Of a DNA stretch of 64,000 bases, positions 20 through 31,039 are shown one piece after another. The stretch is taken from contig NW_027266297.1 of the NCBI RefSeq assembly GCF_022045235.1, forward strand, positions 5,580,001-5,644,000. The letters are read 5' to 3'. The stretch's first letter is position 1. Every line of letters begins with the position of its first letter. The translations under genes and the position numbers were made by a program. The DNA is from Haliotis cracherodii (lineage: Eukaryota). The notes beneath the pieces were generated by a model, which saw only the letters and a list, made by a program, of their open reading frames with translations, did not search any database and was not told the origin of the DNA.

Positions 20-260
20 TAGTTGCCATGGAGATGTAGCTCACGAATTTGTCATGGCAGTTGCCATAGTGATAACGTGAATCTTACCTCCCCAAAATGT
101 GTGTCATGACGGTTGCCAAAGTGATAATGTATATCTTACCTCCCCTGAATATTCATCATGACGACTGCCATAGTGATAACGCATAAATTATCTTTCCTGT
201 CCTGTATATTTATCATAACGGTTGCCATAGTGATAACCCATATCTTACCTCCCCAGCATA
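20..260. repeat. Degenerate about 55-bp tandem repeat containing copies of the exon-249 donor
   Basis: ttgccatagtgataa...atcttacctcccc recurs (81, 133, 242). Confidence 0.75.
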
Positions 261-433
261 CTTATATTGGTAGTTCAGTCCAAACATCTCCAGGGGTCCC
301 TTCATCTGAACCACAAACGCTCCGTTGTTGGTGAACGCAGCCTTGTCCTTCTTAAAATCAGGCTGCATTGACGCCGCGCTGATCGGGGTGATTGTGCAGT
401 TTCCCTGTACCTGGTCTATGTTGTAGGCGATAC
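249..433 (-). CDS. Gene 1 exon (GIAYNIDQVQGNCTI...YKYAGE); gene continues left of the window
   Basis: gttcag|...|gtaaga; 185 nt, phase 1 to 0. Confidence 0.88.
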
Positions 434-3400: not shown

Positions 3401-6400
3401 TTACGACAAACATAGTCGCCTTTTACGGCAACTATGGGTTGCTGAAGACCTATACTACTCCGGATCTACACGGGTCTCACCACATGTAATCATAGCAGAT
3501 AAAGCATCATGGTGTGTAACTCACCGAAGTCGATGGATGTATATATGGCGCCGTATGTCCGGGTCTGGGCAGAGAAACAATTTAACCATTTAAATTGTGT
3601 TATATACCGGTCGATATAGAAATATTATGATACATTAATATTGCCACGTGTGTATATACCCACATGTGTCACAACATACATTTAGAAGATTAACCTTCTG
3701 CATTTTGAATTCTGATGTAGATTGTTATACCTCTTATTTTTATTTTGAGCCGAGCTTTTAGCCAAAAGTTTCAAATGTATAAATAAGAGGTATTAATCCA
3801 CAATGGGACTACATCAGATTTCAAAACACAGAAGGTTTATCTCCATTTTACCATTTTACGCTTTGAAAATGGCGCTCTCATGGAATGCGTAATCACACAT
3901 GGGTACAAGGTAGAACATTCGTCACAGGTTGTTCTAAATGTAACAAATATTACTACAGTTCAAGATTAAAATAATCATAGTCTTGACAAGTTCAAAAGAA
4001 CGGTTCAAAACACATAGCCTTTCAAAAAGTTTCAACCTGCTGCATGTTTGCACTCAATCAAGTCACATGCCCAGGTTGTAGAATTAATTTTGGAAAAACA
4101 TTCTGAACGAATATATGTCTCCTACAAACATTATTAAATAACCGAACTTTATAACCGATATTTAAAAGTTGTACTTATGTAGCAGTTGGTTTGAAATACT
4201 TCCTCAACAGTAATACATGTTAAGAATGACTTTCTCAGCACCCCTAAATTCGACCTGGCTGAAATTTAGCTGCCGACGACACAAAGGAGACCGTGTATTT
4301 TTGAGATTTGATGATTGTGTGGCCCCGGCGGTGGTCAGTGTGTGTTCTACTTCATTGTGTGGCCCCGAAGGTGGTCAGTGAATGTTCTTCTTCATTGTGT
4401 GGCCCCGGCGGTGGTCAGTGTGTTCTACTTCATTGTGTGCACGTGGCCTTAGCGGTGGTCAGTGTGTGTTCTACTTCATTGTGTGGCCCTGCGGTGGTCA
4501 CTGTGTGTTTTACTTCATTGTGTGGCCCTGGCGGGGGTCAGTGGGTGTTCTACTTAATTGTGTGGCCCCGGCGGTGGTCAGTGTGTGTTCTTCTTCATCG
4601 TGTGGCCTCAGCGGTGGTCATTGTGTGTTCTACTTCATTGTGTGGCCTCAGCGGTGGTCAGTGTGTTCTACTTCATTGTGTGGAACTGGCGGTGGTCAGT
4701 GTGTGTTCTACTTCATTGTGTGACCCCGGTGGTGGTCATTGTGTGTTCTACTTAATTATGTGGCCCCAGCGGTGGCCAGTGTGTGTTCTACTTCATTGTG
4801 TGGCCCTTGCTGTGGTCAGTGTGTGTTCTAGTTAATTGTGCGGCCCTGGCGGTGGTCAGTGTGTGTTCTACTTCATTGTGTGACCCTGCGGTGGTCAGTG
4901 AGTGTTCTACTTCATTGTGTGGAACTTGCGGTGGTCAGTGAGTGTTCTACTTCATTGTGTGGCCTTGCGGTGGTCAGTGTGTGTTCTACTTCATTGTGTG
5001 GCTCTAGCGGTGGGATATGGCGTAACACGGTTAAGGTGAATCCAGGCAATATCACTACTCCCATTGCTGACTGAATGTAGATTTCGGAATACTGGGCCGG
5101 AGTGGCAATACGTACCGATCCATCGTCTTCCGGTATATCGATCTGAACCTGGTTTTGGTACACCAGATCTGCCATATCGCCGTAGGCTTCTGAGATCGTC
5201 TTCTCGTGTGCAGTCTCAGGGTTCACGGTGCCTGTGATAGCACACGGAACAAGGGATATAGAGGAAAAGGCAGGAGAAGTCTTAGTCATATTATAGTTGG
5301 ATAGAGAAAGACGGATATGGTGTTGACAAGCAAACTATATCAATCGGCACTAGGCTAGGATTTGAAAAAAACGATCAGCGGATCCTGGCAAGAACTAGGG
5401 AGGCAACTCTTTACAGCGATTAGCAACCCGCGTGTTGCCCCAGGGGATGAGTTAAAAAGTCACGTATTATGAGTCACGTATCCAGCTTTATGACAGCAGT
5501 CTGTAATTTAATCCAGTCTGGACAAGACAGACCACTAACTGACATCAAGAGCATCGATCCACGAGCATCAGTGACAAAAATGTTGTCCGATGCAATTCCC
5601 TATTTTGACTTGTATCATATGTTCCCTTGTTTTTTTTCAGGTGAACAAATTACCTTGCCTTTGCTTGTGTTTGTGACGGGTACTACCGGTGTGGCAGGAG
5701 AAGCTCACCTTTTCGCGAACACCTGGGCCCACTTGCACAAAGCGATGTTAGCGCTACAACTATTGTAAGCCTATGTTAAAGTATGGGAGTTACGATCTTA
5801 GAGCTAAGATCGCTTTGTGCAAGTGGGTCCTGGTATCTTCACTATTTGATAGTGATCAATAAACACATGATCACGAAACAGTCGGAATCGTACTATCGAC
5901 TGCAGAGATTCCAATAGGATATGGGAAGGGATTTATTTCGCTTTATTTACAACACTTACGGGAGAAATGGTCACATGCACTCTGCTTGAGAACAGAGGCC
6001 CCGTCTCCAATATGAGCCTTGCTTAGTTTACACTTGTACCCGTCTAGTGGGCAGAAGTCGAAACTGCGGCACACGATAGCTTCGTTAGAAACACACAGGC
6101 CGGCGCATGTTATAGGATCCGAGATGTTGTTCCACACCATGTCGTCTGTCCTTTCGATCTCCGACTTTGGAACGTACGTGAATTGTGCTAAAATGTACAA
6201 ATTGAAATTAGAAAATTCTCAACGATTACAAAATCGATGAACGATGTTTTAGCAGTATTTCCGTCACAGCCCGGAGTGATACAGATCCTAGACATTAACA
6301 CTTTGGTAAAAAAACAACGAGCATGTGTATGAGATACATATTCAGAGTGGATCTGGAATTCGGACACGTGACTTCTGGAACGCCTAATGGACGCAACTCT

Positions 6401-9400
6401 GCAAAAGCTTCAACAATAATTGGAGCAGCTGCCTTTTCATGTAGTTAGATGTACCTACACATAGAACACATAGAGAATGGACAACCGAGGGACTGATAAC
6501 CCAAAGCTGGTCTATTTAGATACTGAGCTGACAAAGATACGGCGAGTGCCTACTCTAAAATGTATCTTTTTTCAATATGAAGATAAACTTGCTACCTGCC
6601 TTAAAGTAGTCACTTGATTATTGACATGGAATAAATTCGGGTATTAGAATACAGTGTCCCTTTTTCCCTGTCACATTCACTCCCCACCGCCCTTCACCCC
6701 ACTTCCACCACCTCTTTACCCCTGTGTCTCGCAGTTGTGTCTCACCCCTCTCAACCCGGTCACATGCACTCCCCACCGCCTTTCACCCCATTCCACCCAC
6801 CCTCACCCCCACCCCCACCCTCTTTACCCCTGTGTCTCGCTGTTGTGTCTCACCCCTCTCTCCACGTCATCACCCTCACTCCCAGCCCTCCCCGATACGT
6901 CTTCCTCGCCACCCAATCAACCAAATCAACCTTGACCTACCAGCTGGGGGTGTTCGGTCCACCAACGTCGCGCTGACGTACACGTTGGTGTTGTCGTACT
7001 CGACTCTCAAGCGCCCTATTCGGATGGGGTTGACGTCCATGGCCCCCATGAAAGTCAGGTGTGACTTCAGGATCAGAAGGTCCTCCTTGTCCCGGTTGAA
7101 CTGTTTGGGTGCTGAGAAGGAAACATCTAGAATATAATGGCAACCGCTGGATCACGTGATCATCACACATATCTAGTACATCCCTACGTTCGTTCGATTA
7201 TACGAAATTGAGGTTACCACGTTTCTGACGAGCAGGGCTGACTAGATTAACCAGTTAACCAGTGTTAATTATGGTTAAGTTTAGACACTTCCAGAAATAA
7301 ATTTATAGCATGACAAATTAACTAACCGAAAGGATCGGGTGGTCCTTAACGAGTAGAATAATAACTATGTTTGATAAAATAGTTAAGAAACGGTTATTCG
7401 ATGGTGTCAGGAACACTCTCGCGTTGTTAAACCTCGTCCATATGACAGCGTCCCATATGATACCTCTGAGACGTTCATACATTCACATCGGACAATAATT
7501 AGGGCTGTCACCATTACTCCCAAGGGACGCAACTCTGCACAGCGAATTGCGGCGCCCAAGACGATTGGGNNNNNNNNNNNNNNNNNNNNNNNNNNNNNNN
7601 NNNNNNNNNNNNNNNNNNNNNNNNNNNNNNNNNNNNNNNNNNNNNNNNNNNNNNNNNNNNNNNNNNNNNNNNNNNNNNNNNNNNNNNNNNNNNNNNNNNN
7701 NNNNNNGAACAGGTTATTTTGAAAAAGATAAACGACAATTATTTTAAAGAAATGTTTGAATAAACTACTAAGTGTTAGTCTAACCTTCGCCCAGGAGTTG
7801 GAACTGAACTGTGAAACCTAGTTTTTTCGTGTCAGGAAAACAGTCGGAAATATCGAACACGCTTAGAGATGGACTGTCTGCCACAAAATCCAAGAAGTTG
7901 TAAACCACGTGAAAGCCCACCTGTAAACAACGTGCAAACTCAATTCAATGAAACCTTATTTATCCGGATGATACGGTCGAAGAACTGAGTCAGGATGAAG
8001 AAATGAAACCTTGTTAATCCGGACGATTCCGTTCCCTAGAAAGAGTACAGATTAACAACTTTCCGGATTAACGGATTGTGGGTACTAAATTTCGTTGCAT
8101 ATTGTCACAGCGCAGTATTTCAGTTCCACGGCGTGTCAACGTCATGTGGTGATAAGCAGGCCTTAGACGTTTACCATTTTGGTAAAACTGATGCCGACAA
8201 ACCTGGAGAAATAATCGAGGCGAATAAATTCAAACCCACAATCAGAGACGCAATTCTGCACAGCGAATTGCGGTGCCTTAAACGACAGAGCAACCGATGC
8301 CCCTCCTTCCCGCTCTGATGGGAGAGACCGCCTCGGTGGTCTAATGGTAGAGCGTCCGCCCGGAAAGCAGAAGGTCGGGGGTTCGATCCCCAAAAGACGT
8401 TAAAGATGGTATTTGTTGTTACCCTGCTCGGCATAAAGGGGCTAAAACAAGGACTGGTCGTCTCGGAGTCAGTATACTGTGTCTAGGTGGGGTATTTATT
8501 TTAAACTGCGGCATGCTAGCACTATAAAATCGGCATTGGTCTGGACAAGTTCAAGCAGCCACACACACATGCATGCATGTCACTATATGAGTGCAATAAA
8601 CCTGGACGCGACGTTAAACCCCATTTCACCTTACCTCTTCTTTGACGAGAGAATGAGGGTCGCTAAGTTGAAATGGCGTTAACACACGACGACATTAATA
8701 AAACGTAATTCAAATTATCCTACATTTGGGTTGTTTCCTACAAGAAAATATATTTCATTCAACAATTACAAAGGTCACATACATCCAAAGCCGTTATTTC
8801 CAGACGAAAGGGAAAGCCGGTCTGGTATGTGCTGTATCCGACGTTGGGATCGTCCGACCATCCTTCCTGACGGAAATACGAGAAAAGAGACATTGAGACT
8901 GGTACACCAACAAACAGACAGACAGACAACAATAGAGAGATAGTAGCGGGCTTAAACTGGACGCAGTCTCTATTTTCAATATGAAATTGTAAATAAAATA
9001 CAAAATCCGAAATCCGTTTCACCGATACTGGTATATGATTTCTGGGGTGAATGCTCAAACACACTTTTTCTTCATAACTTTGTTTCAAATAATAATTTTG
9101 TTACTGCATTTATATATTTTTTGGTTGTGGGTGTAGTCAAGTTAAAATATGACAAAAAGGGGGTCAACCCCAAACAAATTGCAACAAAGACCATTTTACC
9201 TGCATACAACTTGGAATTGCTCACTTAACAACATATTAAAAGTTTACCAAAATCGGAGGAGTGGAACAGTGCCTAATTTGCATATATTCAAAATGGCCGC
9301 CATTCAAACTAATTGTGCCGGCTATATCTCGGGACCTCGGATAGGTCGAGACTTAATTCTGGTGTCTACACCCATGTTTGGGGGGGGGGGGGGGGGGGGG

Positions 9401-12400
9401 GTGTCAATGAATTTGACTATAACAGTATTTACAAGGAACTACCTCGGATTCTTCAATATACATTCAGGAAGAAGGATCAAGCTGGCACATTATCTGATAT
9501 TTACAAGAGTATTCATTGAGCTATCGAAACAATACCATGGAATTAGGATTCGGAACTTTGTATTTCTATGTCAGGTACACACCAACATGAACAGTCAGAG
9601 TCAAACTTGTTGTCAAGGAAACAGAAAAAATATAAATTCTAACAATCCCTAAATAGCAAAAGGCCCCAGATGACAAACTGGTCATATGTGTGCATAGTTT
9701 CAAAGAAGAATACCTATTTGTTTTAAAGATGTAGTCAAAGTCAAACTTCTTGCCATGGAAACAGGAAAAACATATCTAAATTCCTAAATAGCAAAAGGCA
9801 CCACTTCAAGCCCTGAATAATACATGTTCCAAGTTTGGTTCAAATAGATATAATTTTTTTAATTTGAAGTTTACACGATATACGGCTTTTCCATTGGACG
9901 AGAGGTCGGTCACGTGGCCGCGAAATTGACGTTCATAAGTGTATGAACGACACAATTTGACGTTCATACGTTTTTCGCGATAAAATGGCGTAAAAACTGA
10001 CGGACTACTTCCACATTCCTGGGGAAAGCCCTGGGAATTCCCTAGCAAGAAAACATACATAAGCGTTCTTTCTGATCATTTAGAACCTTTATTCTTGGTC
10101 TCAGCGTTTCAGTATACATTGAGAAAGAGAGGGTGACTGCATGATTGTTCACTAATATCCTCGCTGCGGCGTATCCTAATGAACAAACGAAGAAATACAC
10201 ATCTAAACTATCGTGGTATCGACTCAACCCGTGCCTAGGCTGACACTGACCGTCTCCAGAAATCAAATTGTGTTTAAAATAAAATTGTGTTTAGATTTTG
10301 GCCTACATCATTTGAGGTAAGAAACTGTGATAAAAAAATTATAAGAATTGACTTTCACTTTGTGTGAGTTCATTGGAGTATGAACCTTCATAGAGTGAGG
10401 GCCAAACTGTATGAACGTCTTAAATCCAGCTGCTCCTTCAGAGACTTATAACATCGGGAACACGTCAAAACAGCAGCATTCAGAAGCATTCCAATATGAG
10501 TATTCCAGAATAAGTGCACTCCACGTCCAGCAAAAAAGGTTCAACTTGCTGATGCAATTTGGAGTCTGATGCCTCAAGAATGTCCATACCGCCTGGAGAT
10601 GTGCAGTATGTCCTAGATGGAGGAGTTTGCTTCACAGAATCATATGAAGCCCAGGGTCAAAATATGATGAGATATGTTAGCAGTATGTCAAGTATGTGAA
10701 TAGACGCTGTGGTAAGCCAGTCGTGGTATTTGATGGTTATCTCAGCGGTCCAAGCAAAAAGGATACAACGCAACAGCGAAGAGCAGGATCACGAGTTGGG
10801 CCTCTGTACAAGTCTCAGACTCTATGGTCTTCGATGGAAAGAAGCAGGACTTTCTTTCCAATAAGGATAATAAGCAGAAGTTCATCACCTTGCTTGATGA
10901 ACATCTACGACATCATGGATGTCGCTCACACCATGTTAGGGTAGATGCTGATCTACTAATTGCGCAGACTGCCATTGGCACTGCTGAGACAAGAAAGATG
11001 ACTTAGATATCCTTATTCTGATCTGCTTCCACTCTGAGCTCCCCGCAACAAAGTTTTACCTTAGACCCGAACCTCGCTATGGTGCATAGAAGCAGCCAAG
11101 ATGTTGGAACATAGCTGTTCTCAAAGCACTTTCACGGTTTTGGAAAGGGAGTTGCACTAAACCTGATTCGCACTAACAAGTTCTTTCAGGAGCAAGCTGA
11201 GAGATTTGGAAATCCAAACAGCACCACGGCAGATATTATAGCTGCAGGCGAGAAAGCACTAGTTACCTTGTACAAAGGCAGGCCTGATGATAACTTTTCT
11301 TCACCTTCAGCGATTCCAGCAGAAGGTCAGCAGTAGTACAACAAAGCAGAAGCAGAAGTGAAAGCAGAAGTCCTTCCTCCAACCTCAGCAGCAGCTGTAT
11401 GGTATGCGCGTCTACTTCTAAGTACAGCAGTGGATGGGGAACGAAGATGAGATGTAAACCTACCGAGTAGGGTTGCTGTGAGAAAGCTGGAAAGTACATT
11501 CCTGTTCTTACAGACAAAGAAGCCGCCCCTAAACATCTCCTGAATGTAATAAGGTGCATGTAGCAACAAGCAGTGTACCTGCAGAGCAAATAGTCTTGAG
11601 TGTACCAACGGATGTGAAGTGTGTACAGGTGTATGTAAAAATGTCAGCGCAGTCCTTGAAGAAACTGAAGATGCAAATAAATGCAAAATTGATGCAAATT
11701 AAACATTATGAAAGGAACCAATGATATAAGTACTGTTAAACTTGGAATCTTTGACAAAAAAACCGTGTAGAGACACCAGAATTAGATCTCTGCCAGTATC
11801 AGATCCTAATGTATAGTTAATGGGTTCAAAATGGCCTCCATTTTGAATTTATGCAAATTAGGCATAAAGAAATGATCCAGCTATTACAATATTATTTATA
11901 ATTGAAAACATGGTTGTAGACACCAGAATTACATCTCTGCCATCACCACCTACGAAGATATACTAAAAAATGATGGTTTCAAAAAAGCCGCCATTTTTAA
12001 TTTATGCAAATTAGGCACTTAGACATTACCCAACCATTAAAATACTGTTATAAATGAAATGGGTATAGACACCAGAATTAAGTCTCCACCAGTCTTAGAT
12101 CCCGAGATACAGGCAAACCCTTGCCAAATTAGTTTGAATGCGGGCATTTTGAAATTATGCAAATTAGACACTGTTCCACTACTCCGATTTGGGTAAACTT
12201 TTGATATGTTGTTTTGTGAGTTAATCCAAGTTATATGCAGGGCAAATTGTTTCTGTTGCAATTTGTTTGGGGTCAAATCATATTTTGACTAGATTAAAAG
12301 AGGTAGATGTAAGCAGATGGTTAGATATATACCAACGCCGAGACGAATTAATAGAGGTAGATGTATGTAGATAGGTAGATATATCGAGACGGATTAATAG

Positions 12401-15400
12401 AGGTAGATGTTTGTAAATAGGTAGATATAGAGCACCGAGACGGATTAATAGAGGTAGATGTTTGTAGATAGGTAGATATGTACCATCGCGACGGATTAAC
12501 AGAGGTAAATGTAAGTAGAAAGGTAGATATATACTATCGAGGCGGATTAATAAAGGTAGATGTATGTAGATAGGTAGATATAGAGCATCGAGACGAATTA
12601 ATAGAGGTAGATGTAAATAGAAAGGTAGATATATAACATCGAGACGGATTAATAGAGGTAGATGTATGTAGATAAGTAGATATGTAGCACCTTGACGGAT
12701 TAATAAAGATAGACGTATGTAGATAGGTAGATATATACCATCGAGACGGATAAATAGAGGTAGATATAAGTAGGTAGGTAGATATATAGTTAGGAAATGA
12801 ATCAGTTAGCGAAGATGCATGTATTTAGGCAGTTATCTAACAACGAGAAGGATTACTGGGTGGAGAAACAGAGGCTTCTACATCTACATTTACAAAGTTC
12901 AAAAAGTAGATTAAGTAGATAATTACGTGATAGGACATTTTTATATAAAAAAAGCCAAACACTAAGAATATTTCATTTTAGTTTTGACTTAGTTACGTTC
13001 ATGGACATCATCCGCCGAAGGAAAAACTCAACGTACAGACAGGAAGTAGTATTCGAAGGTCACATTGACACCGGGAGTGTTGGGAATTCTGAAATCTGAC
13101 CTCACAGAAGTGTACACGTCACAGAGGGCATCACGTGCATACCGCTGAAAATATGAATTCAACATTAAAAATGTATGTCAGTTAAGAGGTCGCAGCACTG
13201 AAGAAGGCCAAAGTTCATATAACAGCATTACACGTATTAAAGGGAGTCATCAAGCGATACCTAAAAGCTGGAGGACCTAATGTAACATGTGACCTGTCTT
13301 AACAGGACACCTGTGTTATGTCATGTGAAGATACAAATAGCACAATGGTGTAAACCTTGCTTGGAATTATAATTAGAGACTGAGATTAGTCTTGATGACT
13401 TTTAATGCCCAAAATCTTGTTGCCATCCTTGACTAATTTACAGAGATGGAAATGTGCGCCTCTCATCAATGGACACTGAGTAAAGTCGCTATTGCATCAT
13501 CAAATTATTGTCCATTCCAGACTAGATACGCTGAATGACCAACACGTTTGACACAAAATTGTCAGATATAGTGATCTAAAACAGACGGAAAGGACTAGTC
13601 TGGTATTGATCAGAACCAGTGAACGACTGATCAGAACTAGTGGACGACTGATCAGGAGAAGTGGATTTATGATCAGGACTAGTGGATGACTGACAAGGAC
13701 TAGTGGGTTATTGATCAGAACTAGTGAATGACTGATCAGGACCGGTGAACGACTGATCAGGACTAGTGAAGGAGTGATCAGGACTAGTGGATGACTGATC
13801 AGGAATAGTGAACGACTGATCAGGACTAGTGAACGGCTGATAAGGACTAGCTTATATAGTGGACGACTGATAAGGACTAGTGGACGACTGATCAGGACAA
13901 GTGGGTTATTGATCAGGACTAGTGAAGGACTGATAAGGAGTAGTTGACGATTGATGAGGGCTATTTATCAGAGCTAGTGAATCACTGATCAGGACTAATG
14001 GATGACTGATCAGGACAAGTGGACGACTGATAAGGACTAGTGGTTTATTGATCAGAACCAGTGAACGACTGATCAGAACTAGTGGACGACTGATCAGGAC
14101 AAGTGGATGACTGATCAGGACAAGTGGACGACTGATAAGGACTAGTGGGTTATTGATCAGAACCAGTGGACGACTGATCAGGACAAGTGGATGACTGATC
14201 AGGACAAGTGGACGACTGATAAAGACTTGTAGGCTATTGGTCAGAACCAGTGAACGACTGATCAGAACTAGTGGACGACTGATTAGGACAAGTGGACGAC
14301 TGATAAGGACTAGTGGACGACTGATCAGGACTAGTGAAGGTGTGATCAGGACTAGTGGATGACTGATCAGGACTAGTGAACAACTGATCAGGACCAGTGA
14401 ACGACTGATAAGGACTAGTGGACGACTGATAAGGACTAGTGGACGACTGATCAGGACTATTGGGTTATTGATCAGAACTACTGGACGACTGACAAGGACT
14501 AGTGGGTTATTGATCAGAACCAGTGGACGACTGATCAGGACTAGTGGACGACTGATCAGGACTAGTGAACGACTGATCAGGACTAGTTGATGACTGATAA
14601 GGACTATTGGATTTATGATCAGAACTAGTAAACGACTGATCAGGACTAGTGGACGACTGATAAGGACTAGCGGGTTATTGATAAGGACTAGTGGGTTATT
14701 GATCAGAACTAGTGGACGACTGATCAGGACTAGTGGGTTATTGATAAGGACTAGTAGGTTATTGATCAGAACTAGTGAACGACTGATCAGGACTAGTCGA
14801 CGACTGATAAGGACTAGTGGTTATTGATCAGAACTAGTGGACGACTGATCAGGACTAGTGGACGACTGATCAGGACTAGTAGACGACTGATCAGGGCTAC
14901 TGGGCGACTGGTCAGGACCAGTAGACGACTGATCAGGGCTAGTGGAGTATTCACCTGAAGCAACAACGTCAACTGACCTGTCCTGAGAAGGTGTAGTTGC
15001 TGTTGAGAGAGAAGAACTGCAGAGGGTTCTTCATTTGTAGAGTGAAGGAGCCATTCTGTTTGTAAGCCGGGGTATTCATCATGTCGTCAAAAGAACCGTT
15101 GACCAATGGAAGCACTGAACAGTTACCTGTCACCTGATCCCGGACATAACGGACACCTGGACATACACACATATAGGCATAACGGACACCTGAACATACA
15201 CATATATAGAAGTAGCGGACACCTCGACATACACACATATAGACATAGCGGGCACCTGGACATACACACAAATAGACATAGCGGACACCTGGACATACAC
15301 ACATATAGACATAGCGGGCACCTGGACATACAAACATATAGACATAGCGGGCACCTGGACATACAAACATATAGACATAGCGGACAACTGGACATAGACA

Positions 15401-18400
15401 CATGTAGACATAGCAGACACCTGGAAATACGCACATATAGGCATAACGGACACCTGGACATACACACATATAGACATAGCGGACACCTGGACATACACAC
15501 ATATAGACATAGTGGACACCTGGACATACACACATATAGAAGTAGTGGACACCTGGACATACACACATATAGACATAGCGGGCACCTGGGCATATACACA
15601 TATAGACATAGCGGACACCTGGACATACACACATATAGGCATAGCGGGCACCTTGACATACACACATATAGACATAGCGGACACCTGGACATACACACAT
15701 ATAGGCATAGTGGACACCTGGACATACACACATATAGACATAGCGGGCACCTGGACATACAGACATATAGACATAGTGGACACCTGGACATACACACATA
15801 TAGGCATAGTGGACACCTGGACATACACACATATAGACATAGCGGACACCTGGACATACACACATATAGACATAGTGGGCACCTGGACATACTTACATAT
15901 AGACATAGTGGGCACCTGGACATACACACATATAGGCATAGTGGACACCTGGACATACACACATATAGACATAGCGGGCACCTGGACATACACACATATA
16001 GACATAGCGGGCACCTTGACATACACACATATAGACATAGTGGACACCTGGACATACACACATATAGGCATAGCGGACACCTGGACATACACACATATAG
16101 ACATAGCGGGCACCTGGACATACACACATATAGGCATAGTGGATACCTGGACATACACACATATAGACATAGCGGACACCTGGACATACACACATATAGA
16201 CATAGCGGGCACCTTGACATACACACATATAGACATAGTGGACACCTGGACATACACACATATAGACATAACGGACACCTTGACATACACACATATAGAC
16301 ATAGCGGGCACCTGGACATACACACATATAGGCATAGTGGATACCTGGACATACACACATATAGACATAGCGGGCACCTTGACATACATACATATAGACA
16401 TAGCGGGCACCTTGACATACACACATATAGGCATAGCGGGCACCTTGACATACACACATATAGACATAGCGGGCACCTGGACATACACACATATAGACAT
16501 AGCGGGCACCTTGACATACACACATATAGACATAGTGGACACCTGGACATACACACATATAGACATAGCGGGCACCTGGACATACACACATATAGACATA
16601 GCGGGCACCTGGACATACACACATATAGACATAGCGGGCACCTTGACATACACACATATAGACATAGTGGACACCTGGACATACACACATATAGACATAA
16701 CGGACACCTGGACATACACACATATAGACATAGTGGACACCTGAACATACACACATATAGGCATAACGGACACCTGGACATACACACATATAGACATAGC
16801 GGGCACCTGGACATACACACATATAGACAAAGCGGACATCTGGAACATTCCAAACAGTAGGAGACAGTGGGGATATTCTGATCAATATGGTATTGGGCAA
16901 TAGAAATGATATTATCATATCTGCTGGGGAGCAGGCGATCCGATCTCGTGGGTTCTAATGGTTGGAGTTTGTGGCACACGAGGCCGTTAAAGATGTCGAT
17001 GGTCAAATTCGAAATTTTGTAGCCAACGTCACAGATATCGGATAAAAGTACCTCTGTTGACACAGATGCACGAATTCTTCGAGGCATGCTTCTGATGAGA
17101 GTGAACCTCGATTCGTCAGAAAAAAAATTACATTAGCCCAATGGCGATTATCCCAGTGCTCAGGTATCCCACACAACTGATGCGTCCTCAGTTGTTTAAA
17201 TGGCATTATGTGTGATCGAGATAGATTAATACACCAGAAGTTGTGAGGACATGCTTACCGTAGTTGAAGTCGTGTATCTCAGTTATTGGGTTTAGAGTGT
17301 TGATGGAATCTGACATTGACGTGGGCCTGTGGTCGACTCTAAGGTACTTGCTGTCAGAATTGTACCAAATCTAGAAATCAGGAAGCAGAGTTTTAATATG
17401 GTGTCGAACTAACTCACTCACTCACTCAAATATGTTTAACTGCCCCCGTAAGACCCTCATGTTACTCTCTAACCATGAACCTACATCAGCATGCATTATA
17501 ATTCCGTCCGCACCCTACGGTACTAACATACTCTCATCTTACTTTTTAACCCTGAACCTACATCGTCTAAGGCGCCGCGATTCGCTGTGCAGAGTTGCGT
17601 CCCTTATGAATGCCAGAAACCTATGATTGTGGGTTCGAATCCTGGTTCGCCCCGATTATGTTTCTAGGTTTGTAATACTCTCTAACCCTGAACGTACATC
17701 AGCCTGTATCATCATATCGTCCGCACCTCACAATACCCCCACCCCTCATCTTACTCTCTAACCCTGAACATACAACGGCCTACATTATAATTTGCCGCAC
17801 CTCACGATACCTCCACCCCTCACCTTACTCTCTAACCCTGAACATACAACGGCCTACATTATAATTTGCCGCACCTCACGATACCTCCACCCCTCATCTT
17901 ACTCTCTAACCCTGAACATACAACGGCCTCCATTATAATTTGCCGCACCTCACGATACCTCCACCCCTCATCTTACTCTCTAACCCTAAACATACAACGG
18001 CCTACATTATAATTTGCCGCACCTCACGATACCCCCACCCCTCATCTTACTCTCTAACCCTGAACATACAACGGCCTACATTATAATTTGCCGCACCTCA
18101 CGATACCCCCACCCCTCATCTTACTCTCTAACCCTGAACATACAACGGCCTCCATTATAATTTGCCGTACCTCACGATACCCCCACCCCTCATCTTACTC
18201 TCTAACCCTGAACATACAACGGCCTACATTATAATTTGCCGCACCTCACAATATCGCCACCCCTCATCTTACTCTCTAACCCTGAACATACAACGGCCTA
18301 CATTATAATTTGCCGTACCTCACAATACCCCCACCCCTCATCTTACTCTCTAACCCTGAACATACAACGGCCTCCATTATAATTTGCCGCACCTCACAAT

Positions 18401-21400
18401 ACCCCCACCCCTCATCTTACTCTCTAACCCTGAATATACAACGGCCTACATTATAATTTGCCGTACCTCACGATACCCCCACCCCTCATCTTACTCTCTA
18501 ACCCTGAACATACAACGGCCTCCATTATAATTTGCCGCACCTCACAATACCCCCACCCCTCATCTTACTCTCTAACCCTGAACATACAACGGCCTACATT
18601 ATAATTTGCCGCACCTCACGATACCCCTAGCCCTCATCTTACTCTCTAACCCTGAACCTACATCAGCCTGCATTATTAGATCGTCCGCAACGTCAATGAT
18701 TTCCTGGCGGTAATAGTAGTTTGTGGGCATTTGGGGTAACTTCTCTGTGTTCACTCTTCCCGGGCACTCCACATTGTTGGGCGTCTGAAAGAATCCGATA
18801 CAACGACATATTAGCTGGAGAAAAGGTAAATCCTTTAGACTTAAATATGCGGAACATATACTGACCGCCAATAGAAACGCGACCATAGAAACATAGGGAG
18901 AAGTATATGCGTTAAGAAGAGGTGTTTCCAATGTGTTTCAATTAATGACAAAACAAATAATCAGTCAAGTGTTACCATGGTATCCTTAATCTTATCACGA
19001 AAAGCTGCCCGTGATTTCCAAACTTTACACGCTAATCCTGCACTAGACAAAAGATGCACCTGGAGTCATGGACCTATGACATCACATGTGATGCGTTTAT
19101 CAGCGTCGGTCCACACAAGATACCAGTATGTTAGTTTGTGCGTCGAAATCTAATATCTCTTGAATGTGAGCAGTTCTTCATATATTATTGAGTGGTATTC
19201 GTGTGGATAAAGGTGGGGTTGTGTATAAGGGGTTGGTGGTTGATTGGAGCTGCATCGTGGATTAGGGTAGGATGGGTTGGGGTGTTAATCCTGTAATCTT
19301 CTTAATGGCTTTCCTTTTTTTCAGGGGCTCCGTGAACGTTCAGGCCATTTTTTTTCAAAATACGTTGTATCAATATCTAAAAGGTAAAATGCATCTACTT
19401 TCATACCCTGTCAATGTCTAAAGTTGTAAAGTTTTCGAGAAACAGATTCGATGTCAATGTACCTGAAATATAGACGAATCAACGTCGGAGTCGGCCCTGA
19501 AGTCAAAGTAGTCGTAGACGTGGTGGAACGTCCTCGGGGTGGAGCCGTTAGTGAAGGTCTGTTCCCCTTGCATTTCGATCCTAACCGGAACCATCACGTG
19601 GGTTGATGACGTGGACCAGTTAGAGGCTGGTGAAACGCCAAAGGTGAGTACATGAAGTCACCAAGAATGGTTATTTTGACTAGTTATTTAGAAATAGTTA
19701 TAATAACGTTACCCGCATTTTAAATAGCCATAAGAAGTTGCTATTACTCGACGAGGATAGGGTGGAGAGAGAATAATAGCTTTGCTTAAGTTGGTTTTCA
19801 TTTCTATTTTTCTAGCTATTGTTTCGCTTGCAATATGTACAATGCTCTTATTTAGAAGTCTTGGTAAACTAGGATGTGAGTTGTGACACAAAATAGGCAG
19901 AATAAACCAATAACTGCAAGGTTATGCGTTCTGAACACCTTTAATAAGGCAAGACAACAGTTATCTACGCATGTGTATAGTTACAGAAATTAACGGTTAT
20001 ATGCGCGTGTGCAGTAACACAAAGTAATAGTTATCGGCACAAGTGTAGTAACACAAATTAACAGTTATCTGCACATGTGTAGTAACACAAATTAACAGTT
20101 ATCTGCACATGTGTATAGTTACAGAAATTAACAGTTATCTGCACATGTGTAGTAACACAAATTAACAGTTATCTGCACATGTGTAGTAACGCAAATTAAC
20201 AGTTATCTGCACATGTGTAGTAACACAAATTAACAGTTATCTGCACATGTGTAGTAACACAAATTAACAGTTATCTGCACATGTGTAGTAACACAAATTA
20301 ACAGTTATCTGCGCATGTGTATAGTTGCAGAAATTAACAGTTATCTGCGCATGTGTAGTAACACAAATTGACAGTTATCTGCACATGTGTAGTAACACAA
20401 ATTAACAGTTATCTGCGCATGTGTAGTAACACAAATTAACAGTTATCTGCGCATGTGTATTAACATAATTAACAGTTATCTGCACGTGGGTAGTAACACA
20501 TGTGAACATGTTATGTGACAAAGTTGCTTCACCTGTGAAGTAGTGGTCAAGGGTGAAGTTGGTGTTGGCTGTGGCCCAGAACATACACGTCTGCCAGTGT
20601 ACGGTGGGGAGACCACGGGTGGTGCTGTAGCCTTTGAACACCTGCAACATGACAATGTTTAAATATGCCAATAAATAACAGCAAAACCGTTTCCATATTC
20701 ATAAGAAATCTCTGCCCTGATTCCGACTATATCATGAGCAGCTGTTTATGAATCAAATCATGATGATACCACGTGTTCATGAAAAGGCGAGCTTTGGCTG
20801 TCCCATCGGTGGCACCCGTCACAAACACATGCGAAGGCAAGTAAATTATAAGTAAAATAGGGAATTGCATCATTAGGAAACACAGGGAACAATAGGATAC
20901 ACAATTATCTTTAAGCATGTACGGTCTTAAACATTTTTATCGCGTCTTTTGCACGTTCCTGTTACATGATGATGATGTGAATACATTACCGGTCCTCTTT
21001 GAGACCCGAATCGAAGAGCCTCTGCAGCTGGTGGTATATGGCTCCGCCCATCCGTGACGTCATCGCCAAACAGATTCATTTCATTGGACGTTGTGAGATT
21101 CACGACCTGACAATGTGACTCTGCAACAACATAAGTTGATTTGAAACTGATGCTTCCATTTATGATCATGTATCCATCAAATGTTATACAATTATGGTTA
21201 TAAATTAAATTGGTCAATTAAAGAAGACACTCTCTGAGTTGATTGCGAACTGAGTGTTAAAATATAGAGTAATAGACCAACTCTTGTACAACTTGAAGAA
21301 GTAAACATCCTTTATTCACTGACTATTTCAGTGTAATAATTATTTACACACGCACCTGAGTCAATATTAAAAATCTCGCCGGTATTATAGCTGTAGATGG

Positions 21401-22934
21401 AACGGGACTCCATGCCGTTTGCAAAAAATTTTATTAAGCCGTTGTTGCCGTCGAAGTCGAGATATTGTTCGGCGTCCATTGTGTAGCCTTTGTCCATCAA
21501 GTTGACCTCCACGTGTGCCTGGAACGACTGGAACGACATGTCCGGCAGAGGAGGGTCTGCACGGTGGACAATGGGCAAAAATAACATGTGATACAAGGAA
21601 GGATCGTAAACCCTAACGCAGTTAGTGAGTGTCTCGTGGCACGTGTCCAACAAGTTCTAACGTAGATTAGTGAGTATCTCGTACCACGGGTCCGTCAAGT
21701 TATAACGTAGGTTAGTGAGTGTCTGGTATCATGGATCAAACACGTTATAATGTAGATTAGTGAGTGTCTCGTACCAAAGGTCTAACAAGTTATAACGTAG
21801 ATTAGTGAGTGTCTCGTGCCATGGATCAAACACGTTATAACGTAGATTAGTGAGTGTCTGGTGCCATGGATCCAACACGTTATAATGTAGATTAGTGAGT
21901 GTCTCTTACCAAAGGTCTAACAAGTTATAATGTAGATTAGTGAGTGTCTCGTACCAAAGGTCAAACAAGTTATAATGTAGATTAGTGAGTGTCTCGTACC
22001 AAAGGTCTAACAAGTTATAATGTAGCTTAGTGAGTGTCTCGTACCAAAGGTCTAACAAGTTATAATGTAGATTAGTGAGTGTCTCGTGCCATGGATCCAA
22101 CACGTTATAAAGTAGATTAGTGAGTGTCTTGTACCATGTGAGACTCTCTTTCGGGTTTGGCCCAGCAAGTTATAAAGTAGGTTGGTGAGACTCTCTTTCG
22201 GGTTTGGCCCAGCAAATTATAAAGTAGGTTTGCGAGCATCTCGGCCAAAGGGTCAAACCATGTATAAGAAGTTTGTGTGCAGCGTGTGTCTGACGGACCC
22301 GATATGGTATGGAGTGTACGAATGGTTCACCTGACGGACCCGACATGGTATGGAGTGTACGAATGTCTCACCTGACGGACCCGATATGGCATATAGTATA
22401 CGAGTGTCTCACCCGAAGGGCCCGATATGGTATGTAGTATACGAGTGTCTTACCTGACGGACCCGATATGGTATGGAGTGTACGAATGGTTCAACTGACG
22501 GACCCGATATGGTATGGAGTGTACGAATGGTTCACCTGACGGACCCGATATGGTATGGAGTGTACGAATGGTTCACCTGACGGACCCGATATGGTATGTA
22601 GTATACGAACGTCTCACCTGACGGACCCGATATGGTATGTAGTATATGAATGTCTCACCCGACGGACCCGATATGGTATGGAGTGTACGAATGGTTCACC
22701 TGACGGACCCGATATGGTATGTAGTATACGAATGTCTCACCTGACGGACCCGATATGGTATGTAGTATACGAATGTCTCACCTGACGGACCCGATATGGT
22801 ATGTAGTATACGAATGTCTCACCTGACGGGCTTGGCATGGTACCTGGACCCCCAGTACAGAAGGGCGTGAGGGAAGACACCCCGCTGCCACACAGCCACA
22901 CCCAGGTCACCAGCACTGACACTCGCCGTGACAT
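249..22934 (-). CDS. Multi-exon gene, 3'-incomplete in window: secreted/surface protein with tandem ependymin-related (LolA-fold-like) repeats and a PAN/Apple domain. Coding exons: 22934-22823, 21556-21356, 21120-20990, 20641-20533, 19626-19463, 18784-18662, 17370-17259, 15156-14978, 13144-13037, 8866-8783, 7920-7785, 7111-6941, 6187-5960, 5231-5116, 3564-3525, 2480-2383, 1382-1271, 433-249
   Basis: All 18 exons have AG/GT boundaries and matching phases, giving 2409 nt (803 codons) without a stop. N-terminal hydrophobic signal MSRRVSVLVTWVWLCGSGVSS. Internal repeat with identical exon phasing: IWYNSD...EIHDFNY/GVRYVRDQVTGNC...MKNPLQFF versus VWYDSK...YVHDFNT/GIAYNIDQVQGNC...MKGPLEMF. Apple motif CAGLC...CRSFDFC...CKLS...CDHF. 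Family naming is from motif recognition, not a database search. Confidence 0.88.
1271..1382 (-). CDS. Gene 1 exon (VWYDSKYKLARYD...YVHDFNT)
   Basis: cgttag|...|gtatgt; 112 nt, phase 0 to 1. Confidence 0.88.
1602..1770 (+). mobile_element. SINE family A copy
   Basis: Diverged copy of 44111-44278. Confidence 0.8.
2383..2480 (-). CDS. Gene 1 exon (GYTDSKPLPSMPEQFSYRMEIVIPNKKTTTTVD)
   Basis: acgcag|...|gtaagt; 98 nt, phase 1 to 0. Confidence 0.85.
2487..2725. repeat. (GAGT/GGGT)n microsatellite abutting the exon 2480 acceptor
   Basis: Direct reading. Confidence 0.9.
3525..3564 (-). CDS. Gene 1 small exon (TRTYGAIYTSIDF)
   Basis: tctgcccag|...|gtgagt; 40 nt; supplies the phase 0 to 1 bridge needed between the neighbouring exons. 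Confidence 0.75.
3687..3842. mobile_element. Hairpin (fold-back) MITE-like element
   Basis: agattaaccttctg..ttttgaa.tctgatgtag versus ctacatcaga.ttcaaaa..cagaaggtttatct. Confidence 0.55.
4310..5010. repeat. About 40-bp minisatellite, about 17 copies
   Basis: ttgtgtggccccggcggtggtcagtgtgtgttctacttca. Confidence 0.95.
5116..5231 (-). CDS. Gene 1 exon (RTVNPETAHEK...IDIPEDDGS)
   Basis: tcacag|...|gtacgt; 116 nt, phase 1 to 0. Confidence 0.82.
5726..5829. mobile_element. Same palindromic MITE, inserted into another dispersed repeat, CTG TSD
   Basis: acCTG|ggcccacttgcacaaagcg...cgctttgtgcaagtgggtc|CTGgtatc. An uninterrupted relative of the host repeat lies at about 20760-20830 (opposite strand). 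Confidence 0.75.
5960..6187 (-). CDS. Gene 1 exon encoding the PAN/Apple domain
   Basis: ttttag|...|gtaagt; 228 nt, phase 1 to 1; CAGLC-x6-CRSFDFC-x6-CKLS-x14-CDHF. Confidence 0.9.
6941..7111 (-). CDS. Gene 1 exon (APKQFNRDKED...VNPIRIGRLRVEYDNTNVYVSATLVDRTPPA); an alternative in-frame acceptor would start the exon at 7126
   Basis: ttctcag|...|gtaggt; 171 nt, phase 1 to 1. Confidence 0.82.
7570..7706. other. Assembly gap
   Basis: Run of N. Confidence 1.
7785..7920 (-). CDS. Gene 1 exon (VGFHVVYNFLDF...VFDISDCF...FQLLGE)
   Basis: ttacag|...|gttaga; 136 nt, phase 0 to 1. Confidence 0.83.
8327..8637 (+). mobile_element. SINE family B copy
   Basis: Colinear with 56528-56885. Confidence 0.8.
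8783..8866 (-). CDS. Gene 1 exon (EGWSDDPNVGYSTYQTGFPFRLEITALD)
   Basis: cgtcag|...|gtatgt; 84 nt, phase 0 to 0. Confidence 0.8.
9134..12291 (+). mobile_element. Decayed, internally deleted Academ (AcademX-type) DNA transposon inside a gene 1 intron
   Basis: Termini TAGTCAA...TTGACTA; about 240-bp imperfect TIRs (9134-9378 versus 12058-12291); internal frameshifted XPG/PIN-like and Cys-rich remnants. No TSD recognised. Confidence 0.72.
10490..11650 (+). pseudogene. Academ-type ORF remnant (XPG-like nuclease region plus C-terminal CxC zinc finger)
   Basis: Fragments VQYVLDGG, VVVFDGY..GPSKKD, FLSNKDNKQKFI, DADLLIAQTA, AGEKALVTLY, LPPTSAAA, APKHLLNVIRC, CTCRANSLECTNGC across frameshifts and stops. 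Confidence 0.75.
12292..12790. repeat. About 50-bp minisatellite
   Basis: gagacggattaatagaggtagatgtatgtagataggtagatata... Confidence 0.9.
13037..13144 (-). CDS. Gene 1 exon (RYARDALCDVYTSVRSDF...FEYYFLS)
   Basis: tttcag|...|gtacgt; 108 nt, phase 0 to 0. Confidence 0.85.
13605..14945. repeat. 21-bp minisatellite, about 60 copies
   Basis: gactgatcaggactagtggac. Confidence 0.95.
14978..15156 (-). CDS. Gene 1 exon (GVRYVRDQVTGNCSV...MKNPLQFFSLNSNYTFSGQ)
   Basis: gtccag|...|gtcagt; 179 nt, phase 1 to 0; paralogous to exon 433-249. Confidence 0.87.
15140..16845. repeat. 33-bp minisatellite, about 52 copies, unit spans the exon-15156 acceptor
   Basis: ggacacctggacatacacacatatagacatagc. Confidence 0.97.
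17259..17370 (-). CDS. Gene 1 exon (IWYNSDSKYLRVDH...EIHDFNY)
   Basis: ttctag|...|gtaagc; 112 nt, phase 0 to 1; paralogous to exon 1382-1271. Confidence 0.88.
17690..18700. repeat. 74-bp minisatellite, about 13 copies, unit spans the exon-18662 donor
   Basis: ccctcatcttactctctaaccctgaacatacaacggcctacattataatttgccgcacctcacgatacccccac. Confidence 0.95.
18662..18784 (-). CDS. Gene 1 exon (TPNNVECPGRVNTEKLPQMPTNYYYRQEI...MQAD)
   Basis: tttcag|...|gtaggt; 123 nt, phase 0 to 0. Confidence 0.87.
19463..19626 (-). CDS. Gene 1 exon (ASNWSTSSTHVMVPVRIEMQG...HHVYDYFDF...SSIFQ)
   Basis: caccag|...|gtacat; 164 nt, phase 1 to 0. Confidence 0.87.
19955..20500. repeat. 33-36-bp minisatellite
   Basis: gtagtaacacaaattaacagttatctgcacatgt. 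Confidence 0.95.
20533..20641 (-). CDS. Gene 1 exon (VFKGYSTTRGLPTVHWQTC...LDHYFT)
   Basis: ttgcag|...|gtgaag; 109 nt, phase 0 to 1. Confidence 0.87.
20990..21120 (-). CDS. Gene 1 exon (ESHCQVVNL...ALRFGSQRGP)
   Basis: ttgcag|...|gtaatg; 131 nt, phase 1 to 0. Confidence 0.85.
21356..21556 (-). CDS. Gene 1 exon (DPPLPDMSFQSFQAHVEVNLMDKGY...GEIFNIDS)
   Basis: gtgcag|...|gtgcgt; 201 nt, phase 1 to 1. Confidence 0.88.
21620..22140. repeat. 45-bp minisatellite
   Basis: gttataatgtagattagtgagtgtctcgtaccaaaggtctaacaa. Confidence 0.93.
22287..22830. repeat. 41-bp minisatellite, about 13 copies, unit spans the exon-22823 donor
   Basis: cctgacggacccgatatggtatgtagtatacgaatgtctca. Confidence 0.95.
22823..22934 (-). 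CDS. Gene 1 exon with signal peptide (MSRRVSVLVTWVWLCGSGVSSLTPFCTGGPGTMPSPS)
   Basis: gtacag|ATG ... CCGTCAG|gtgaga; 112 nt, ends phase 1. Confidence 0.8.
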
Positions 22935-23312
22935 CTGTACACAAATAGTTTTGAGAATCGACAAAGTTGTTCATGTTTAGACAACAGTGTTTTAGACTTT
23001 GCTTGAAGAGCAAAGGTCACATGTCAACACGGAGTGTGAAGTTTGTTGTGGAACTGATTTGAATACCCTTGAGTAATTGAAATCGATAAATCAACGTACA
23101 GTTTCAAATGAACTATTTTTTTACAACATTTAGGATCGCGTTTACAAGCTAATCGTTTTTAGGGTCCAAGGGCTATTGGGTCTATTTATACATTATTATG
23201 TCAATAACGTTGTAAGTCCGTGTACCATGTGATAATGAAAGTGCCTGTGAAACTTGTTGCACGTCTAATTTCAATGTATTGAAACGCCAAATCATATACA
23301 TGTTTAGATTAT

Positions 23313-23685
23313 TAATAATAATAATAACTACAGATTTATATAGCGCTGGTATCCAGTTCGAAGAACTGCTCAAAAGCGTTTCATTTGAGTCTACACAAAA
23401 AAGAGTCATTACACAGCTAGGAAAACACAAAGCCTCAATACTCCAAGACGGATTTGGTGAAAAGATAGGTTTTGAGTCTTGATCGGAACAAAGTAGGACT
23501 GTCAATGTTCCTGATATCCAATGGCAGCCTATTCCATAGCCCGGGGGCAACTTTGGCGAAACTCCGACCTCCAAAAGTCGCCGTTCTAACACTAGGCACA
23601 GAGAGTAGGGACTGGCAGCTTGATCTGAGAGTAATATTAGGATATTACACAATGATTAATAAACATGTTTAGGGTATGGGGGTAC
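23313..23685 (-). mobile_element. L2/CR1-group LINE 3' fragment
   Basis: Minus-strand translation TLRSSCQSLLSVPSVRTATFGGRSFAKVAPGLWNRLPLDIR...FRSRLKTYLF, then GCGCTATATAAAT and a (TAT)n tail. Confidence 0.8.
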
Positions 23686-24218
23686 AAACAACTGTGAGAC
23701 AGCGTTTCGTGTTGAGGCCCTAAACTTGTGTAGATAGCACACACCAAACGTGTATCAGGTTTTGGATTTAAACAAATACCTAAACACGTTTACATCTAAA
23801 CACGTCTTGTACGTGTTGTCATACTATACACATGTTTACAGTATACTGAATTTGAAACATGTGAAGTGACTTTAAAAATTAAAATGTAATAATAATATTA
23901 TATAATGTTCAGCAAATACAATTGATAGGGCTAATACTGATAAGGCACTTTTGAACTTTGAAAAAACGGTTATGTAAACTTTGGGGTTTTCTTCATAAAA
24001 GGTAATAAGACTGTCAGATAGAAGATCTTTTTTCGGTCTTGTAGGGGTGTAGCGTTATATGAAAAGGTCAATGCTAATAGCAATTATGTCTTCCTGGGCT
24101 GTTCACCCTAACAGTAAATGACAGCTCCCTTGACATAAGCTTGGAGTACGTGAGGAACAACGACAGTACCTATATCTGGCACAGAAGAAATACATGTACA
24201 TGTATATGATACAGAAAC

Positions 24219-25196
24219 AATTATCTACGAGTGGTGAGGAATGACGGATTATCTGTCCCGAGTGGAATTAATGTTTGATAGTTGAAGGTGGAAAGTCCCG
24301 AGCCTTCACGAGGAACTTTCAAACATTAACGAGGGACAGATAATCAAGAAAGGTTTATTGTTTTTATTACCCATCGTCAAGTTTTGACCAAGAAACCAAG
24401 AAACCAAGAAACCATAAGAAACCGTTGACTCTTATAACAGAGGCGAAGTCGCATTTCATAATATTTATAAACTCGAGTGAAGCGAATTCTTGGAATGTTA
24501 TTTGATCACACTCAGTGAAATAGTTCGTTTGAGTGGCATTATTTCTTCAACAATTTAAGCAATATAATGAATTTGGGGGATAATAATACATTGATTCATG
24601 TATAATAGTACAACAATGGTTTAATAATGACTTGGCATTATTGTTAATACAAAATTCAAAAACATGTAGTTCAAACTGTTCGCCATTTTCTTTGGGTGGC
24701 ATTGCCGCCAGCCGCCTCAAAGTCACTAGCTGTCATGACTACGAAAGGAAAACCAAAACTTTTGTCTGTCTCCACATTCTCATCAACAACAAACTATGTA
24801 AATTGATTCTACAACATGTAAGATTTATTTAACAGCCTCTTTCAGGTCATCATTTATCTTACTTTTTAAGACAACAGTCAATGTTTCCTACTCGAACATT
24901 GGAATGTGGCTTGGCCTTGGCCTTAAACTGATAGATCAAGGCCAGAGAGTCTATGCAGCATTTTCAAGAAAGTTAAACGTATATGTGGATTAACCAAGAA
25001 CATTGGAGCCAGTTGATTCGAACGTTGGATTGACTGCCCTAAACGTCTCCGCATTGTCGACAAATCTCCGGACTGAGTGTGAACTCTTGTACCTATGCTC
25101 ATGGTTAATGCTCGTGAAATAATGTTTGAAAGTTCCTCGCCAAGGGTCGTACTCGGGACAGATAATTCGTCATTCTTCGTCACTCGTAAATTATTC
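24219..25196. mobile_element. Unclassified non-autonomous element with terminal inverted repeats and an internal hairpin
   Basis: 24219-24263 (aattatctacgagtggtgaggaatgacggattatctgtcccgagt) is the imperfect inverse of 25151-25195. Confidence 0.6.
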
Positions 25197-25490
25197 TCTT
25201 TGAACACAACAGACAAGAAGCATCAACGCGATTGATCCTTTGAGTTTGTTAAATTAAAATGAGACAAAGCTACACATTTTGTTTAATTAGTCGGGTTTTT
25301 TAAATAAAAGGATTATAAGATCATAACTTGTTTTATTTAAAACTAATTACGTGTCATTCTCAATTTTTTTGGATAGTTTGTTTTCAATACATCTTGACAT
25401 CCGTGTATCATGTGGACTTATTTATCGATGTATGTAATAGTAAACAATATAAGAACATTGTTATTTTGAGTGATGTACACAGTTACTCAC

Positions 25491-25526
25491 TGTCAATCTG
25501 CTAGGCCACCGACTAGTATCCACCAT
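25491..25526 (-). CDS. Possible upstream first coding exon of gene 1 (MVDTSRWPSRLT)
   Basis: ATG in good context (GACAATGG), 12 codons, donor ACA|gtgagt in phase 0 matching the acceptor at 22934. No transcript evidence. Confidence 0.4.
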
Positions 25527-30363: not shown

Positions 30364-31039
30364 GATCTTCACCCTTGCCACAAACACAGGAACATGGAGT
30401 GGAGTTGGACAAGTATCACAGTGCCATTGATCACCCACTTCCTCGTCCAACAGTTCTCAGAACGGGCGATCCTTGATAAAGTAGCAATGTAAAGTCTGTA
30501 CCTTTGTTCGTGGTATTTTCCGTTCATTGTAGTTTTGACTTGGGAACGATGGTGTTCACACTGAATATATCCTTGTTTAGAACATCGTAGAAGCTGAAAC
30601 GTTTGAACAGATTGTTTAGACATGACGGAAAACTAGGGGGGGAATTAACTTGTGGAACAACAAGAAACATTTTACAAGTCGAATAATTAAGCCTAACACA
30701 TACAGTTTCTGTGTTTTGCTTTATGTGTTTGTTGCTTAACGCCGAACTCAGCAATATTGCGGCTACATGACGGCGGTCTGTAAATAATTGAGTCTGCACC
30801 AGTCAAGACAGTGATTGAAATCATGAACATCGATCCACGCAATTGAGATACGATGACATTCATCAACCAAGTCATCAACCCGATCAAGCATGGTTTGTTG
30901 AAGTCCAGTGTATTCTAGGATGCCTTATCAACGCTGAAGTACATGATCAATACGGGTCTCCTTTAATGTGTAGTCGGATATTAAATATACCTCCTCCCTG
31001 TAAAATTTTGATCGGTATAGAATCAGGGCGACAACATTT

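Follow-up and report, generated by a model that had tools for sequence, protein, structure and literature searches.

This work concerns an array of tandem repeats that lies across one splice junction of an abalone gene. The sequence analysed, which we call the window, is a stretch of 64,000 nucleotides (nt) from Haliotis cracherodii (RefSeq assembly GCF_022045235.1, contig NW_027266297.1, forward-strand positions 5,580,001 to 5,644,000). The host gene is on the minus strand, as are all of its features given below. It occupies 249..25526, with coding exons 1-19 of 31 inside the window and the remainder to the left of it. The protein P0004, which carries the NCBI label of H. cracherodii isoform X1 (1430 amino acids, aa), threads exactly through the window and the adjoining 40 kb as 31 coding exons separated by 30 GT-AG introns. 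The array is in intron 8 (15157..17258, 2102 nt, phase 1), between coding exon 8 (17259..17370, 112 nt) and coding exon 9 (14978..15156, 179 nt, aa 330-389 of P0004). Exon 9 matches Haliotis proteins. Intron 8 and both of its flanking exons are confirmed by the exact threading of P0004 and by spliced contigs, which place the authentic acceptor AG at 15157..15158.

P0004 has a signal-like N-terminus, two PF25898 regions in precomputed annotation, five PAN stretches in a Pfam scan and, in that same scan, a sub-threshold Ependymin match. We take PF25898 to be the family called 'LolA-like'. An earlier note on this DNA described the product as a secreted protein. A type I membrane protein with a putative transmembrane helix seems the likelier identity to us, because the signal-like N-terminus is joined by a hydrophobic stretch near the C-terminus (about aa 1388-1410, read by eye). 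The sole alternative protein on record is RefSeq isoform X2 (P0003), which skips exon 3 (21356-21556, 201 nt) in frame. The skipped exon comes after intron 2, which carries a 41-bp array at its donor.

Tandem Repeats Finder (TRF) reports a 33-bp minisatellite of 51.6 copies at 15143..16844, with 91% matches and 0% indels, and this array fills about 80% of intron 8. The unit is made of the last 19 nt of intron 8 plus the first 14 nt of exon 9, so the array crosses the boundary and extends 14 nt into the exon. When the register is set by the acceptor at 15156, the array is cut into 51 upstream units and an AG is kept at the end of all 51. The junction reads CAG|G in 39 of these units, AAG|G in 9, and GAG|G, CAG|T and CAG|A in one each, which makes 41 CAG, 9 AAG and 1 GAG. 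The earlier note had listed about 52 tandem acceptors, with some units changed from CAG to AAG; TRF and the register cut bear out its coordinates and its counts, the 51 upstream units and the acceptor at 15156 together. A junction-word test is passed by 50 copies at the intron 8 acceptor and by 0 at the gene's 29 other acceptors, so the agreement of unit and junction goes far beyond what chance would give.

We infer that the unit was derived from the host junction, since its exon part is conserved protein sequence and no close copy of the array was found elsewhere in the genome (the best outside matches have 68-71% identity, in a search that skips simple repeats). A dispersed repeat family that happens to match the exon is ruled out by the same two points, the locus-specificity of the array within the scope of that search and the conservation of the exon part as protein. 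The array would have begun with one short tandem duplication across the acceptor, followed by expansion and homogenisation through ordinary minisatellite turnover. Presumably it could be tolerated since, with the copy next to the exon in use, the mRNA stays the same. If the units are numbered outward from exon 9, there are 18 rare variants in units 1-14, 7 in units 15-50 and 2 in unit 51. The interior is homogenised and the edges are less so. The clustering of rare variants at the proximal edge is what minisatellite turnover with a homogenised interior is expected to produce. The distal edge (16840..16872) is diverged and holds the most upstream AG (16841-16840); it could be where the ancestral intron ended, or else an edge unit that has decayed. 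The base next to that AG, at 16839, is A in the window and G in X15, a DNA-like sequencing run with another organism label. X15 has two differences in exon 9, and it contains the array with the same distal boundary. The summed depth of its collapsed array reaches 186 and 260 against 5-8 for the exons, which is not a copy number. The copy number given above comes from a single assembly, and contigs built from short reads collapse the array.

The use of the acceptors was read from 5 of 24 sequencing runs, namely X15 and four that we guessed to be RNA (X1, X4, X6 and X14, from four studies); none of the 24 is registered as containing RNA. Three raw-read runs are microRNA libraries and were left out. 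The regions 14960-15230 on the acceptor side and 16765-17450 on the donor side were compared with contigs, and junctions were read by eye from the loose contig ends on either side of intron 8. On the acceptor side a single long contig lies exactly over exon 9 in each of X1, X4 and X14 (depths 25, 16 and 25), and its loose ends run on into the neighbouring exons. On the donor side X1, X14 and X6 each show a single loose end at the exon 8 donor, whose continuation is exon 9 from 15156. The sole junction seen is thus 17259 to 15156, in three of three RNA-like runs on each side and in all four overall. No contig of these four runs joins exon 8 to an array unit (among all records of X1, X4 and X6 and, on the donor side of X14, 8 of 10).

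The authentic AG has no visible advantage over its copies. Over positions -20..+2, 30 of the 51 upstream AGs are letter-identical to it, and 36 of the 51 score at least as well on a matrix derived from the 29 remaining acceptors of the gene. Its predicted unpaired probability is 0.03, against 0-0.51 at the copies. On these scores and this low unpaired probability we reject the idea that the authentic AG is the stronger or the better exposed site, and position rather than sequence is indicated. Site choice could work by exon definition, with the last AG pairing with the donor 179 nt downstream. The exon defined by the AG nearest to that donor would be the normal one of 179 nt, with all of its exonic sequence. 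The upstream copies carry only 14 exon bases each and would define longer exons, from 212 up to 1862 nt. Our reading, which we hold with considerable confidence, is that the array is an intronic minisatellite whose unit copies the intron 8/exon 9 boundary, a 'mirage' of the splice site, and that it is likely neutral. As for the 51 copies upstream, they are probably silent pseudo-acceptors that leave with the intron.

A stepwise removal of the intron would give the same mRNA, with the AG|GT points inside the units serving as ratchet points for recursive splicing. In its favour, a T follows CAG|G in 39 units, and 48 donor-like hexamers are present in the array. However, intron 8 is only 2.1 kb long, the regenerated donors match the consensus poorly when judged by eye, and no intermediate junction appears among the contigs listed. 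We give this idea almost no weight.

The intron 8 array is not alone. Arrays straddle 6 of the 60 splice sites of the host gene, and the five sister arrays are at four donors and one acceptor. Those in the window are at the donors of intron 2 (22290..22829, 41 bp x13), intron 7 (17676..18676, 74 bp x13.5) and intron 19 (50..265, 52 bp x4). To the left of the window are the arrays at the acceptor of intron 20 (47 bp x12) and the donor of intron 27 (77 bp x7.8). None of the five has a period divisible by three. As an outside sample we took 124 of 125 kinesin-domain matches (337 kb); the one dropped is intron-less with 20 stops. Here the exon edges were predicted with matrices, as opposed to being shown by RNA. 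Among 71 arrays in this sample, 7 of 248 predicted junctions are straddled, at L077, L082 (two), L089, L096, L112 and L113. Five of these are donors (83 x28, about 40, 33 x58, 35 x22 and 34 x85) and two are acceptors (49 bp with about 55 units, and 29 x38). L104 may have a further straddling array, with degenerate donor copies from 14 nt after the donor. Viewing 21 of 30 myosin loci by eye added one more donor array, 79 x7 at L032.

Under a random-seeding null, which is crude, 2.3 straddling arrays are expected in the kinesin sample, where 7 are observed (P=0.01), and 1.2 in the host gene, where 6 are observed. When the two are pooled and the picked array is removed, there are 12 straddling arrays versus about 3.5 expected (P about 3e-4). 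Straddling arrays are common in the H. cracherodii genome. Only 2 of the 14 have a period divisible by three (P=0.11), so there is no signal of selection for or against periods that keep the frame. One in-frame array among many is what would be expected by chance.

The reading frame deserves discussion because the earlier note proposed, as one of two readings, that the array is a tunable device, adding a variable Cys-rich insert or sending transcripts to nonsense-mediated decay (NMD). Its description of the frame is accurate. Translated in the frame of exon 9, the consensus unit is GVRYVYMCVCP, the units are in phase with the acceptor at 15156, and the frame is open except for a lone TAA in unit 23 (15893..15895). 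This leaves 22 proximal units open (15157..15882, with 41 Cys) and 29 units upstream of the stop. However, the open exon frame is unremarkable, because the other two frames on the same strand have no stop at all across the array. The distinct unit variants comprise 5 synonymous and 21 replacement changes, versus 22:77 possible (P=1.0), which with 26 variants is a test of low power. No coding constraint is visible on the units. None of the 26 aligned homologous proteins across molluscs has an insert at the exon 8/9 junction, which lies in a motif that is free of gaps and has two conserved positions to each side of it. That the units read in frame as a Cys-rich peptide probably just follows from TG-rich sequence with a period of 33 nt. 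The change that makes the TAA also creates the array's only consensus donor hexamer (15896-15891). Together with an AG upstream of it, this hexamer could delimit a micro-exon, but a junction of that sort was not seen.

In a selected device, a ladder of Cys-rich isoforms and the fraction of transcripts lost to NMD would be tuned by copy number and by where the TAA stands. The period divisible by three, the 22 open units and the extracellular position of the would-be insert all suit this proposal, as does the persistence of the array in X15. The difficulty is that no such isoform is found among contigs or proteins, 15156 being the only acceptor used in all four RNA-like runs, and that the units show no purifying signal. 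A device that inserts residues also sits badly with the conserved motif around the junction, and 12 of the 14 comparable arrays are out of frame. We therefore consider a selected device very unlikely. The other suggestion of the earlier note, that the array is a test case for how the spliceosome chooses the last of many identical AGs, seems fair to us given how many copies equal the authentic site.

The abalone array belongs to a known kind, the boundary-spanning or 'mirage' minisatellites, and the choice among identical splice sites is already the subject of published test cases (PMC3087553, PMC1557585). What follows is taken from the available portions of the papers cited. Ebner et al. 2010 (PMC3087553) describe mirage minisatellites of amphioxus in Adh3 and in the globins BflGb6 and BflGb9, including mirages on the acceptor side with regular splicing. 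The likeness to BflGb6 is close, since there too the repeats cover the 3' end of the intron together with the 5' portion of the next exon (PMC3087553). Common to the amphioxus and abalone arrays are a tandem duplication of the boundary, splicing that is unaffected and edges that escape homogenisation, and in the amphioxus mirages the splice signal is kept in many units but not in all (PMC3087553). The abalone array differs in being from a mollusc and in having 51 units of 33 bp, versus 3-6 units of 150-160 bp in amphioxus. Unlike the amphioxus mirages, it has a period divisible by three that keeps the frame for 22 units (PMC3087553).

Borensztajn et al. 2006 (PMC1557585) studied a 37-bp variable number tandem repeat in intron 7 (IVS7) of human F7, in which identical pseudo-donors are functional but silent. 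When the nearer sites are mutated, use falls and exon skipping rises with distance (PMC1557585). As in the abalone, the first monomer spans the boundary of exon and intron, the pseudo-sites are identical and the exon-proximal site wins (PMC1557585). Other minisatellites at boundaries are found in human 6-16, CBS, lamin B2 and PDGF; these and F7 are all on the donor side, whereas the abalone array is on the acceptor side and so is the mirror case (PMC1557585). On the acceptor side a simple 5'-to-3' scan would choose the wrong AG, namely the first. A different comparison is the notothenioid antifreeze glycoprotein, whose origin is traced to a trypsinogen-like gene, in which a 9-nt element lay across an intron-exon junction (PMC6410882). 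It shares with the abalone array an in-frame repeat seeded on an intron-exon junction, but the notothenioid repeat became coding and was selected, whereas the abalone array is spliced out in all contigs seen and has no visible coding constraint (PMC6410882). We found no report of boundary-spanning arrays in abalone in the openly accessible literature, subscription papers being outside the search. An intronic 27-bp minisatellite of abalone has been described, and the available portion of that paper does not mention a boundary (PMC6905558).

Several observations weigh against silent copies, and they should be set out together. The RNA evidence consists of assembled contigs, which lose rare forms, the runs were guessed to be RNA, and X1 alone agrees with the window at every letter of the two exons; the other RNA-like runs are off by 1-2 letters. 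Contigs of 63 nt made of array sequence are present in two of the four RNA-like runs, at a depth of 2.4 in X1 and 6.5 in X14. In X1 such a contig is present and the unique intron sequence is uncovered, an absence that we do not use as evidence. The array has persisted, because X15 holds it under another organism label. Finally, human 6-16 and CBS do use the two nearest pseudo-donors, according to the portion of the F7 paper available (PMC1557585).

One alternative is leaky splicing without selection. The nearest one or two upstream AGs would be used slightly, adding 11 or 22 aa, and use of those farther away would lead to NMD, all of it noise. That 30 of the 51 sites are identical to the authentic one speaks for leakiness, along with the collapsed array contigs in X1 and X14 and the precedent of two nearest pseudo-donors in human 6-16 and CBS (PMC1557585). 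Yet a joint between exon 8 and a unit appears in none of the contigs of the four runs. In the abalone no pseudo-site was seen used, in contrast to the two used in 6-16 and CBS (PMC1557585). The array contigs themselves are free of exon junctions and have the length expected of a collapsed 33-nt cycle. With 5 and 8 mismatched letters to the two proximal units against 1 and 3 to distal units, they match the distal ones better and do not represent the +33 or +66 forms. Their source may be pre-mRNA, DNA or rare use of upstream sites. Dividing their depth by a 31-mer multiplicity of about 10.5 gives about 1% (X1) and 2-3% (X14) of exon depth, a ratio we do not rely on because contig depth cannot rank parts of a gene. 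Low-level use of upstream AGs is possible, since contigs lose rare forms and such use is one candidate source of the array contigs. As an account of the locus we think leaky splicing improbable, and we prefer the silent mirage.

It is worth stating what the boldest version of the device would be. In it upstream AGs would serve in a few percent of transcripts; Cys-rich blocks of 11 residues would come from the 22 proximal ones and NMD from the 29 distal ones, so that copy number acts as a rheostat. Thousands of other arrays (about 3% of the junctions sampled, some threefold over random) would be usable in the same manner. If true, array length and stop position would tune the output of a membrane protein, and the genome would hold a whole layer of splice-site copies available for the same use. 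We regard this as a long shot.

On the preferred reading of a neutral mirage the single locus is ordinary. Its value is as a ready-made substrate, with 30 identical acceptors at 33-nt steps. It allows the acceptor-side version of the question asked of F7 donors, with an in-frame readout. The density of straddling arrays may matter more than the intron 8 locus. If the sampled rate holds, there would be thousands of them in abalone, an extrapolation rather than a count. With such numbers, public RNA data would suffice to measure how site choice depends on distance, strength and frame, and the mirage route to intron gain could be tested as well.

Some arrays come close to splice sites without straddling them. 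Those at 13607-14946, 19956-20500 and 21622-22138 and those in introns 22, 26 and 29 start 22-65 nt from a splice site, as if hugging the exon edges, an impression made without statistics. Intron 24 of the host gene (about 6321-9148 bases left of the window) is filled by a trinucleotide microsatellite of about 940 copies. Elsewhere in the window there are three single-ORF (open reading frame) genes with a methyltransferase domain of the FkbM type, at 29284-30456 (-), 36263-37438 (-) and 41807-43630 (+). Two of the three are close paralogs, and within the coding sequence of the third there is a 15/30-bp repeat (42092-42219). A DDE_3 transposase remnant in two frames lies at 33389-34157 (+). A multi-exon gene at about 52495-60650 (-) has KIAA1045-type RING finger and EF-hand matches, and the arrays at 57686-58551 and 59100-59994 show no obvious exon overlap at their ends by eye. 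Outside the window, the same genome has a tandem cluster of about 15 myosin-head genes at C12:64.58-64.96 Mb.

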